In this document: positions 9,304 to 12,007 of the stretch, piece after piece
How positions within the stretch are numbered: position 1 is the first letter of the stretch
Layout of the letters: every line of letters starts with the position of its first letter
From: Cenarchaeum sp.
GTDB taxonomy: Archaea > Thermoproteota > Nitrososphaeria > Nitrososphaerales > Nitrosopumilaceae
Direction: 5' to 3'
NCBI GenBank assembly: GCA_965206845.1
Contig: OZ242221.1
Location: forward strand, 480,001 to 544,000
Length of the DNA stretch: 64,000 nucleotides
Translations under genes and position numbers: made by a program
Notes under the pieces: model-generated
The model's database searches: none
The model's input: the letters and a program-made list of their open reading frames with translations, nothing else
Told to the model about the DNA's origin: nothing

Positions 9304-9375
9304 GAACTAGCCGGAATGTGGCCGACTTAAAGGTGTAACGAAGGGAAATTATATAGTTAAGTGAACTGCCGCCGC

Positions 9376-9832
9376 GGGGCCGGTAAGTTCCGGTGACCTG
9401 CCCAGGGTGGCGGAGTAACCTGGGAATGGATAAGAGAGGAGATCAGGCGGAGCCTTGGCCGCCTTAATGAGGGTCTTCCACTGTTGGCGTCCTCGGCCTC
9501 GATACCGGCGACCTGGGCCAAGGTGGTGTTGTCAGGCAGCCCAAGGTGTGGCCTGACAAAGTTGTGGTAGAGACGTAGCCTGGAGAGGATCGCCGAGTCG
9601 TCTTTCTTGAGGCTGCAGGTGACCTTCTCGCGCTGCCGCAGTGTGTTGCCGTTGAAGGACTCCATCTGGTTGTTGTTCATGGCGCCCGCCGTGTGGATGT
9701 GCCGCTCATACGTAGACTACTTGTGAAGGAAATTCGTGGCCTTGTGCTGCTTGTGGGCGCGCCTGAAGTTGAGTGTCCCATTTGATACCAGCGTCTCCAA
9801 CATGATCTAGGTCACGTCAACTTACCAGCCCC
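9376..9832 (-). mobile_element. Nested IS6-like mini-element carrying a decayed DDE transposase C-terminus
   Basis: 24-bp TIRs GGGGCCGGTAAGTTCCGGTGACCT / GGGGCTGGTAAGTTGACGTGACCT (20/24); 8-bp TSD GCCGCCGC at 9368-9375 and 9833-9840; absent from copy 2. Confidence 0.85.
9440..9800 (-). pseudogene. DDE transposase remnant (IS6/IS240-like archaeal type)
   Basis: TLVSNGTLNF (expected Asp is Asn), in-frame stop, NNNQMESFNG.LRQREK, YHNFVRPH.GL, frameshift before WKTLI; 5' truncated; boundaries approximate. Confidence 0.8.
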
Positions 9833-10270
9833 GCCGCCGCATGTCCATGGCCTCCCGTTCAGGCAGATCATGCGGTCCGGCAGACCGGTCTTCCCGGTTC
9901 CGGACTGGCCGGCGACTGCCCCGGGTTTTCCGACGCCGGCCGGCATCCCGGGGCAGGCAGGAGCCCGGGAAGGCGGCTGCCAGGCCGCGCCTCTCACGCG
10001 GGCAAACGCCGGATCCGCATGGGGTGCCGTCCCAAACGGTTCCGGCATGCGCAAGGCGGCAGCCGCATGCGAAAGCGGACAAAACCCGTCCTTTTCGGGC
10101 CTTCCGCCATGAGGGCCGTTCCCGCGCGGCGCCGGCTCGGCCCCAGTGGCGGCCGGAAACGCGCGGGCAGGCGCGGCGGAAATGATGGATGTGACAGTGC
10201 GGACGGTCCGCACGGCCGGAGCGGCACCGCCATGTTTCCTTTTATACTCGGCTGGCATTTGCATGCGGTA

Positions 10271-12007
10271 ATGAGACCCGTCATGGCAGAGGCAGAGGCA
10301 GAGGCAGAGACAGCAGCAGCAACGGAGCAGGCGGATGCAACCCCAACAGCGGCATCCGCGGCGCCTCCGGAGCAAAAAAAGAAGTCAGGGCGCGCGAGGG
10401 AAGGCACCACGGTGCGCACCATAAAGGTGAACTTTGACCAGTCGGCCGAGCTGTCGGATCTCATATCCCGCCACATGGACCAGCAGAGGTGGGCATACAA
10501 CATGGCGGTGCGGGAGAAGCTGAAAGACCCGAGGACAACCAAGTTCGACCTCAACAACATGCTCACCAAATGGAGGGACGAGAGGGCGTGGCTCGTCCAT
10601 GACAAGGAGGCGCTGGCCGCGGGACGCAAGGAGGCCTGTGATACCAGGGTGCAGCGGGCCGGCCTCAGGCAGGGCCTCGACGCCGTGGATAAGTTCATGG
10701 CATCCAACGGGAAAAAGCGCCGCAACAAGTCCCTGTGGAAACACCTGGCCAGGCTCTATCGGGAAAGGGAGGGCATTGAGGATATCGACACCGCTCCCAA
10801 CCTGCCGTCCAACAAGTGGAGCATCAAGAGGAACAAATGGACCCGCAGGGACTCCCTGTTCAGCAGAAAGGGCGAGATGAAGTCCCTGACGGTCTTTGAG
10901 AAGCCCGTCTACAAGGGCAACAACATGGTGATGCTCCCCGGCATAGGTACCGTAAAAGTCCACGGCGACGTTGAGGATCTTGATATGCGCTCCTTCCAGC
11001 TCGTCGAGACGACAAAGAGGACCACAAAGCGCACCGAGGACCGCAACAGGACGTACCGGCTCCACATCCAGATCAGGATAAAGGCCCCAGAGCCGCCGGA
11101 ATCCGCGGTTATCAGGGGCGTCGACATGGGCATAGTGCACGGCGCCGCCACGGTGGATCTGGACACGGGCAGCCACGCGTTCCATGACCTCCCAAAGGAC
11201 TGCAGGAGGGCAAAGGATGATGACATATCGAAGATGTACTCCGAGCTCTCACAGAAACGCGGCGGGAGGGGCAACCGCAGGATCAGGCAGGACGCCAATG
11301 AAGGCGCGGATGGCGGAAACAGCGGTAGCGGCAGCAGCAACAACACGAGCGGCCACAACAGGAACAAAACAAGGAAGCCCAAGTCCAGAAGCTACAAGGA
11401 GCTCCAGAGGAAGATCAAGAATAAGCGCGAGAGGCTCGCCAACCGCCAGACCAACTGGGAGCGCCACGCCTCCAAGAGTATAGCGGACGGCGCCGGCACG
11501 GTGGCAATGGAGGACTTGGACCTCGTGAACATGACTGCAAGGGCCAAGGGCAAGGGAAGCTCGGCCAAGACGGGGCTCAACCGCGAGATGGCGTACTCAA
11601 GGCCCGGGACGTTCCAGAGGCTGATCAGGGGCGCCTGCGAGAACGCCGGAGTGGCCGTAATAATGGTGGACCCCAAGGGCACCAGCATCACATGCCACCA
11701 GTGCGGCCACAGGGACGAGAACTCCCGCGCGTCGCAGGCAAGGTTCCGGTGCACCAATGACAGATGTGAGAATGACGTCAACGCGGACATCAATGCCGCG
11801 TATAATATTGCCTCCAAGGCGGAAGCCGTGGCAGCAGGGCGGCCGGGAAGGTCGTCTGAAGGCGCGAGACACCAGCGCGGGATTGCTCCCGCGCGTTCCC
11901 CAGACAGGGCGCGAGAGCCAAGCGCCGGGGGGTTGCAAGAGCGCCAGCAAAAGGCATGGGTGCTGTACACTCATGTATATAATTCCCTAACGAAGGAACT
12001 ACTTTGA
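10271..12007 (+). CDS. tnpB: TnpB-like RNA-guided RuvC endonuclease (~578 aa)
   Basis: RWAYN helix, RuvC-I GVDMG, RuvC-II AMEDL, Zn finger CHQC..CTNDRC, Ruv[20 protein letters not shown] at 10241 supports ATG 10271 (ORF track starts 10019). Confidence 0.9.
11835..11987 (+). ncRNA. Candidate omegaRNA/reRNA scaffold, copy 1
   Basis: ~150 nt near-identical between the two copies despite a frameshift; hairpins GCGCGGGA/TCCCGCGC, GGCGC/GCGCC, CATGGGTG/CACTCATG; position matches TnpB reRNA. Confidence 0.55.

Follow-up and report, generated by a model that had tools for sequence, protein, structure and literature searches.

TnpB nuclease genes in transposons with IS1595-type ends in a sponge-associated archaeon

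How does a gene for an RNA-guided nuclease of the TnpB type come to lie between inverted transposon ends flanked by a target-site duplication (TSD), and which enzyme moves it? The question is raised by two elements in a stretch of 64,000 nucleotides (G000:C1:480001-544000, hereafter the window) from the archaeal, sponge-associated genome G000, a single contig of 1.65 Mb with 57% G+C. Elements of the IS1341 group of IS200/IS605 and those of IS607 lack inverted ends, leave no TSD, and rely on a TnpA of the Y1 or serine type. The two elements studied here have the ends and 8-bp duplications of the insertion sequences (ISs) of the IS1595 family. We regard each copy, with a probability of about 0.8, as a non-autonomous thaumarchaeal IS1595-family IS in which the transposase gene has been replaced by tnpB and a 3' scaffold for a putative guide RNA (omegaRNA). 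Judging from sequence comparison, an IS1595 DDE transposase made elsewhere probably moves such elements in trans.

Ends, duplications and copies of the TnpB element

The two copies in the window have inverted, GG-terminal ends, and tnpB is the sole open reading frame (ORF) of the TnpB element. Copy 1 (9344-11987) has arms of 26 nt that are 77% complementary; copy 2 (34372-36200), in which tnpB lies on the minus strand, has the same termini and is 77% identical to copy 1. Each is flanked by a perfect 8-bp duplication, different in the two cases. These ends and duplications had been reported for both copies in a preceding sequence-only reading, and they hold for both. Furthermore, a 12-nt terminal motif, GGRAATTATATA, occurs four times in the window when at most one mismatch is allowed, exactly at the four element ends, against 0.12 expected occurrences; a count of four was reached in none of 100 shuffles. 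The features are as follows.

Copy 1, 9336-9343, no strand: 5' TSD TAACGAAG; the preceding base, 9335, is the conserved G discussed below
Copy 1, 9344-9369, plus strand: left inverted end GGAAATTATATAGTTAAGTGAAC..., from arm alignment and motif count
Copy 1, 10271-12007, plus strand: tnpB open frame (MRPVMAEAE...), from the ORF and profile matches
Copy 1, 11833-11987, plus strand: conserved structured 3' region, putative omegaRNA scaffold, which stops at the transposon end
Copy 1, 11962-11987, minus strand: right inverted end, from arm alignment and motif count
Copy 1, 11988-11995, no strand: 3' TSD TAACGAAG, repeat of the 5' TSD
Copy 2, 34364-34371, no strand: TSD TATTTAAA adjoining the right end (tnpB on the minus strand)
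Copy 2, 34372-34526, minus strand: right inverted end and structured 3' region (putative omegaRNA scaffold)
Copy 2, 34377-36026, minus strand: tnpB open frame, 549 aa in its longest form
Copy 2, 36175-36200, minus strand: left inverted end GGGAATTATATAGTTAAGTGAAC...
Copy 2, 36201-36208, no strand: TSD TATTTAAA adjoining the left end; the base beyond it, 36209, reads C on the plus strand and is thus the conserved G in the orientation of tnpB

The catalytic core of the copy 1 nuclease ends near 11810, and its frame continues through the right end of the transposon into the flank.

These two copies belong to a larger family. When the genome was searched for the ends and the TSDs were tabulated, 47 end-like matches were found, of which 30 pair into 15 TnpB-bearing elements of 1.83-2.64 kb. 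The two halves of the TSD agree at all eight positions in 10 of the 15, at seven in two, and at six, five and one in a single element each. Identity to the two window copies ranges from 67 to 82%, which indicates old, distinct lineages. An open frame of at least 543 aa is kept in 12 of the 15 tnpB copies and broken in the other three. In addition, all 16 matches to the Cas12f1-like_TNB domain in the genome fall within the 15 elements or one truncated copy, which means that every TnpB in the genome is of this type. Among the remaining end-like matches, 15 are solo and two bound a 706-bp element (G000:C1:938659-939364) that has GGGAATTATATTCTTGAGTG inverted ends and lacks both an ORF and a TSD; it may have arisen by deletion or by recombination between two copies.

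TnpB-only elements are usually of the IS200/IS605 (IS1341-type) or IS607 kind, and the present ones share with that kind the guided_TnpB family and a structured RNA that overlaps the 3' end of the gene and reaches the element end. Yet the idea that ordinary elements of this kind merely happen to have such ends and duplications is refuted for all practical purposes. The ends and TSDs recur in 15 copies, the end motif stands far above chance, and the genome contains no enzyme of the required type: the whole 1.65 Mb gave zero matches to Y1_Tnp and zero to Resolvase (serine recombinase), which extends to the genome the earlier observation that neither a Y1 nor a serine TnpA is present.

Copy 1 reaches its 2,644 bp only because another element, missed in the sequence-only reading, is nested in it:

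Copy 1, 9376-9832, no strand: nested 457-bp element, resembling a miniature inverted-repeat transposable element (MITE) and foreign to the TnpB element, with inverted ends GGGGCCGGTAAGTT... and its own TSD

Sister copies show an uninterrupted site at this point. The TSD of the nested element, GCCGCCGC, occupies 9368-9375 and 9833-9840, and its inverted ends can also be given as GGGGCCGGTAAGTTCCGGTGACCT. It is unique in the genome and carries a transposase-like C-terminal remnant ORF, which had no Pfam match and no full-length relative in the genome; an assignment of this remnant as rve- or IS6-like was dropped, since Pfam gives nothing. Only its ends resemble other sequences, namely MITE-like repeats beside the IS1595 gene described below, where similar ends (GGGCTCTGTTAAATTCTGGTGATCT) cluster just downstream (L096:1065-1315). 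Other ISs are plentiful in the genome, including an rve-type family of about 18 copies and four DDE_Tnp_1 families of 7-14 copies each. One IS, at G000:C1:870710-871900, interrupts the TnpB element at 870565, and another lies at 7062-8024 of the window, 1.3 kb upstream of copy 1.

IS1595 transposase genes in this genome and its relatives

From the ends and the length of the TSD, the sequence-only reading had proposed IS1595 or IS6 as the DDE family concerned. The first proposal is upheld by a transposase gene, shared termini, 8-bp TSDs and composite elements, and the second falls away, as the IS6 (IS240) DDE domain has zero matches in the genome. Elements of the IS1595 family are described in PMC8101967 as encoding a DDE_Tnp_IS1595 transposase with an N-terminal Zn ribbon, usually making 8-bp TSDs, and being related to eukaryotic Merlin, with its 5'-GG termini. 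The domain has exactly one match in the genome, an intact 309-aa gene with a Zn ribbon that lies outside the window (G000:C1:27527-28453; NCBIfam transpos_IS1595, 160 bits against a cut-off of 75). The sequence GGGGCTTATATCGCTGAGTACACA, 53 nt upstream of its ATG, matches the end of the TnpB elements at 19 of 27 positions. Another IS1595 copy survives as a decayed fragment with 62% identity and two stops, located 63 nt inward of a solo GGGAATTATATACACAAGTAGC end; the decayed copy sits behind a GGGAATTATATAC end. None of the 15 TnpB elements encodes a Zn-ribbon and DDE_Tnp_IS1595 transposase, and they are therefore non-autonomous derivatives of IS1595 rather than autonomous members. They resemble IS1595 in their GG-terminal inverted ends, their 8-bp TSDs and the termini they share with transposase-bearing elements of related genomes, and differ from it in that the window copies lack the transposase and have tnpB, with its RNA scaffold, as their only gene.

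Related genomes provide the transposase-bearing counterparts. Relatives of the IS1595 transposase occur in 14 of the 151 genomes of the archaeal family that were searched. Across G000 and related genomes, a terminus resembling GGGAATTATATA lies 53-74 nt upstream of the transposase in 10 of 20 IS1595 loci examined, and at one of them (L099) the terminus matches the left end of copy 2 at 21 of 23 positions. Genome G099 has two full IS1595 copies of 2,131 bp (L101 and L112) with 8-bp TSDs and without tnpB; second ends were sought at seven further transposase-only loci in relatives, and none was found. In L101 and L112 (353-2483), about 1.1 kb downstream of the transposase is non-transposase sequence that holds a 93-aa ORF of unknown function, and a model of the 3' RNA described below found no match in this element.

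Two relatives carry both genes together. In the composites L127 (genome G064, 2,509 bp) and L128 (genome G144, 2,562 bp), an IS1595 transposase gene is followed by a gene for a 441-aa TnpB, and a single outer pair of inverted ends encloses the two. The TSDs are perfect 8-mers that differ between the loci (CTAGACCC in L127, GATACCGG in L128), from which it follows that IS1595 machinery has moved TnpB-containing units. The composite TnpB aligns with that of copy 2 over its full length at 26% identity (E 5e-31), including the RuvC motifs. Furthermore, 6 of 10 loci examined in the composite-bearing genomes contain elements with tnpB alone, the same ends, and a perfect 8-bp TSD. These findings favor the earlier proposal of a DDE transposon that carries TnpB and is moved in trans. 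An internal IS1595 end is present between transposase and tnpB in both composites (L127:4609-4660; L128), so that a composite looks like two abutting elements moved by their outermost ends; such an arrangement may have been the route by which tnpB was captured.

The composites also bear on whether the TnpB-like RuvC protein could itself be the transposase and make the 8-bp staggered cut. It is the only ORF in the element, and RuvC is a nuclease of the RNase-H fold, like DDE enzymes. Nevertheless, this is very improbable: the same ends and TSD length are found on tnpB-less IS1595 elements that have a transposase, the composites carry both genes, and the protein gives a full-length match to guided_TnpB.

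The shared left end has a further property. The terminal GGGAATTATATA (9344-9355 and 36189-36200) resembles an inward-facing archaeal promoter, with a transcription factor B recognition element (BRE) and TATA box, and solo near-matches to it (G000:C1:1300194 and 1390841) lie just upstream of ORFs. Hence, the left end possibly doubles as the tnpB promoter, and it may have been inherited as such from the IS1595 transposase promoter.

How much of this is new? The sequence-only reading had presented the capture of a prokaryotic TnpB by a DDE transposon as a novelty, which overstated it. The main text of Altae-Tran et al. (2023, PNAS, PMC10691335) already distinguishes six DDE-associated TnpB branches (DDE-1 to DDE-6), all with terminal inverted repeats (TIRs), and reports solo TnpBs that share ends with transposase-bearing copies and were apparently moved in trans. 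As in those systems, the TnpB studied here lies inside an inverted-repeat transposon with its 3' end less than 250 bp from the transposon end, and its solo copies share ends with transposase-bearing ones; TnpB and a DDE gene within one repeat pair were found only in the relatives (L127 and L128). The DDE partners named are IS630 in the main text of that paper and ISL2, IS630 and IS1031 in passages of a 2026 review (PMC13565253). Unlike the TA or 2-3 bp of those partners, the TSD here is a variable 8-mer. The main text of PMC10691335 makes no mention of IS1595, and one of the branches DDE-1 to DDE-5 may be the present clade. Searches of the literature returned no paper linking IS1595 with TnpB by title or abstract, and none combining Nitrosopumilaceae, sponge, transposase and TnpB. 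Thus, the DDE-TnpB arrangement is already known, and what is new is the IS1595 partner, the full series of elements, and a one-sided G beside the TSD.

The nuclease and its 3' RNA

The protein has the hallmarks of an RNA-guided TnpB. It matches the NCBIfam model guided_TnpB (NF040570) with 122.7 bits for copy 2 and 116.8 bits for copy 1, against a cut-off of 100, over profile positions 2-387 of 389, and falls short of the cut-offs set for IS200_TnpB and IS607_TnpB. Pfam gives a Cas12f1-like_TNB match at 1e-15. The D-E-D RuvC triad and Zn finger described earlier as intact are indeed so, D277, E397, D489 and the four cysteines of the CxxC...CxxC finger being invariant in 19 aligned relatives. 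When solved structures were searched with a profile, chains of Cas12f and of TnpB matched at about 1e-12 across RuvC-II, the zinc finger and RuvC-III. In 7wju, a Cas12f chain, E397 and D489 align with residues 324 and 401, which we take to be catalytic residues of that enzyme.

A large protein collection contained 142 close relatives of this TnpB, and none (E <= 1e-60) was found in 400 other genomes of the archaeal family searched. A scan of genome contigs with the single protein found no related loci, and a metagenome contig scan likewise found none; an alignment-based scan of the genome contigs returned only relatives of about 30% identity and one contig at 69%. Records of metagenome-assembled genomes (MAGs) of Nitrosopumilus sp. 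(L040-L065) hold a separate, abundant 1.52-kb TnpB family of about 396 aa and about 30% identity. Its inverted ends are 28 nt long (TATAGTGAAAAGCGAAAGTTCGTGCAA), an invariant C lies just 5' of the left end, and an 8-bp TSD is lacking, with a duplication of TA as a possibility. This family probably uses a different transposase partner.

Substitution patterns separate the protein into two parts. Over 66 pairs from 12 copies, the core has a synonymous rate (dS) of 0.75 and a ratio of nonsynonymous to synonymous rates (dN/dS) of 0.23, which points to purifying selection on the core. In the same pairs, the roughly 60 codons after RuvC-III have a dS of 0.20 and a dN/dS of 1.1, and this tail is therefore constrained as nucleotides and not as protein.

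The value for the core matters for whether the elements are fossils, the IS1595 system being inactive in this lineage and tnpB persisting for some other reason or by drift. No pair of copies exceeds about 82% identity, the sole intact transposase gene has no recognisable second end, and three of the 15 tnpB frames are broken, all as fossils would have it. At the same time, 10 of 15 TSDs are still perfect and 12 of 15 frames are open with a core under selection, and we consider the fossil explanation unlikely. A weak hint in the same direction comes from a contig of sequencing run X12 that joins 34368 to 36207 and skips the element and one TSD, as an empty allele would; it is a single contig of depth 5, placed with 90% likeness, and its joint misses the expected position by 1 nt. 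The same-genus genome G006 proved unsuitable as a comparison for empty sites: its DNA is only 71-80% identical, and its flanks are inverted or lie on different contigs.

The last 155 nt of the elements are 89% conserved per column, compared to 67-82% identity for whole copies. RNAalifold predicts 43 pairs in seven helices, of which 10 pairs show compensatory changes. Paired cells of the alignment reach 97.5%, against 91.3% in shuffled alignments (0 of 500 reached the observed value) and 33-52% when the partner was slid. The last helix of this predicted RNA is made up of the inner portion of the right inverted end. A covariance model of the region was matched over its full length in 12 of 33 sources searched; every match lies at the 3' end of a TnpB relative (G064, G144, G109 and L039) and ends in UAUAUAAUUCCC, and the matches add further compensatory changes, in an alignment that is itself fitted to the model. 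No Rfam family matched. On the basis of the covariation, the drop in synonymous rate along the tail, and the covariance-model matches, we interpret these approximately 155 nt as a putative omegaRNA scaffold. The stretch is contained in 20 sequencing runs from 11 studies, two of them RNA runs labelled sponge metagenome. In one (X18), a contig has a depth of 122 over the scaffold region and 3-23 over the ORF; this depth sums the many copies that share the region, and no conclusion on expression follows from it. The other (X17) has no contig over the scaffold region.

Target sites and a possible role for the nuclease

The insertion sites carry a signature on one side. With the copies oriented by tnpB and the base just 5' of the TSD numbered -9, this base is G in 15 of 15 copies, compared to a background of 0.26-0.27 before comparable 8-mers (P about 2e-9). 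It is also G in five of six relatives with perfect TSDs. The first base of the TSD is T in 12 of the 15 copies and C in three. On the other side, the corresponding position beyond the TSD is C in just five of 15, and this is so even for subfamilies in which both ends agree over 22 nt or more. The conserved G may be a minimal target-adjacent motif (TAM).

A mechanism can be proposed that would tie this base to the nuclease. An IS1595 transposase supplied in trans would cut and paste the TnpB unit, and TnpB with its omegaRNA would then re-cut the emptied donor site, whereupon the element would be copied back. For this second step, which follows by analogy the restorative-homing model as outlined in PMC13565253, we see about an even chance. 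In one version of it, the omegaRNA would be read through the right end into the flank, and the guide would begin with the TSD, as the duplication made by the IS1595 shell is a variable 8-mer. The invariant G (perhaps GT) would then serve as a TAM of one or two bases, and occupied sites would be shielded from cutting by the C at the end of the transposon. By analogy such a geometry is conceivable, and we offer it as a tentative and rather doubtful part of the model.

Several observations weigh against our account at one level or another. With respect to the IS1595 origin, the end at the intact transposase gene shares just those 19 of 27 positions with the TnpB ends, and a search for the second end of that gene found none recognisable. 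With respect to activity, the copies are 67-82% identical, without sign of a recent burst in this genome. For the protein, an AlphaFold2 model built from the 19-sequence alignment had a mean predicted local distance difference test (pLDDT) score of 36.9 and was unusable for a fold search. With respect to the guide, in Fanzors the TSD is built into the scaffold, according to passages of PMC10711439, so that a TSD-first guide is not the sole option. Finally, the transposase-proximal ends of nine tnpB-less IS1595 elements read G, G, C, T, A, T, A, C and C at -9, second ends being confirmed for the first two alone; in the two composites the base is C and A, respectively; and a co-oriented ORF starts 17-51 nt beyond the right end in at least 8 of the 15 copies, which sets promoter context up as a rival to the TAM reading of the G.

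In that rival, the G bordering the TSD on its 5' side, and the T next to it, would reflect a target preference of the IS1595 transposase, or selection for insertion into promoter-like, AT-rich sites in a single orientation with respect to the neighbouring gene. The targets are AT-rich 8-mers resembling TATA boxes (window 34310-34371 and 14 other sites in G000), mostly T-initial as given above, and 22 nt separate the TSD of copy 2, TTTAAATA, from the ATG of a small downstream Cys-rich ORF on the same strand. The co-oriented ORFs point the same way, as does the G on the transposase side of the two tnpB-less G099 copies. Yet a simple preference is at odds with the one-sidedness of the signal, with the remaining seven transposase-only ends (C, T, A, T, A, C and C, second ends not found), and with the C and A of the composites. 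We give this explanation real though minority weight.

Comparison with eukaryotic Fanzors places these elements in a wider setting. As passages of PMC10711439 and PMC13565253 describe them, Fanzor1 and Fanzor2* likewise combine an RNA-guided TnpB-type nuclease with a DDE cut-and-paste transposon that is often non-autonomous, and the inverted end is part of the RNA scaffold. According to the same passages, the TSD of reported Fanzors serves as the TAM, being either fixed or absorbed into the scaffold. Unlike them, the present system is prokaryotic, its TSD is variable, and the conserved base lies just outside the TSD.

Our findings add IS1595, the prokaryotic kin of eukaryotic Merlin, as a fourth DDE family to the few known carriers of TnpB. 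In related genomes the stages of the association are visible, from transposase-only IS through composites of transposase and TnpB to TnpB-only derivatives, and this is the same route as has been proposed for the capture of Fanzors in eukaryotes. They also bear on a question raised in the review PMC13565253, of how a homing nuclease helps a cut-and-paste element with long, variable TSDs; a one-sided G beside the TSD is a concrete, testable answer. If the G is a TAM, it points to a compact nuclease with very loose targeting rules. And if the proposed mechanism is true, it would be a nearly TAM-free natural TnpB, and the first case of a DDE transposon whose insertion sites bear an orientation-specific mark left by the nuclease and not by the transposase.

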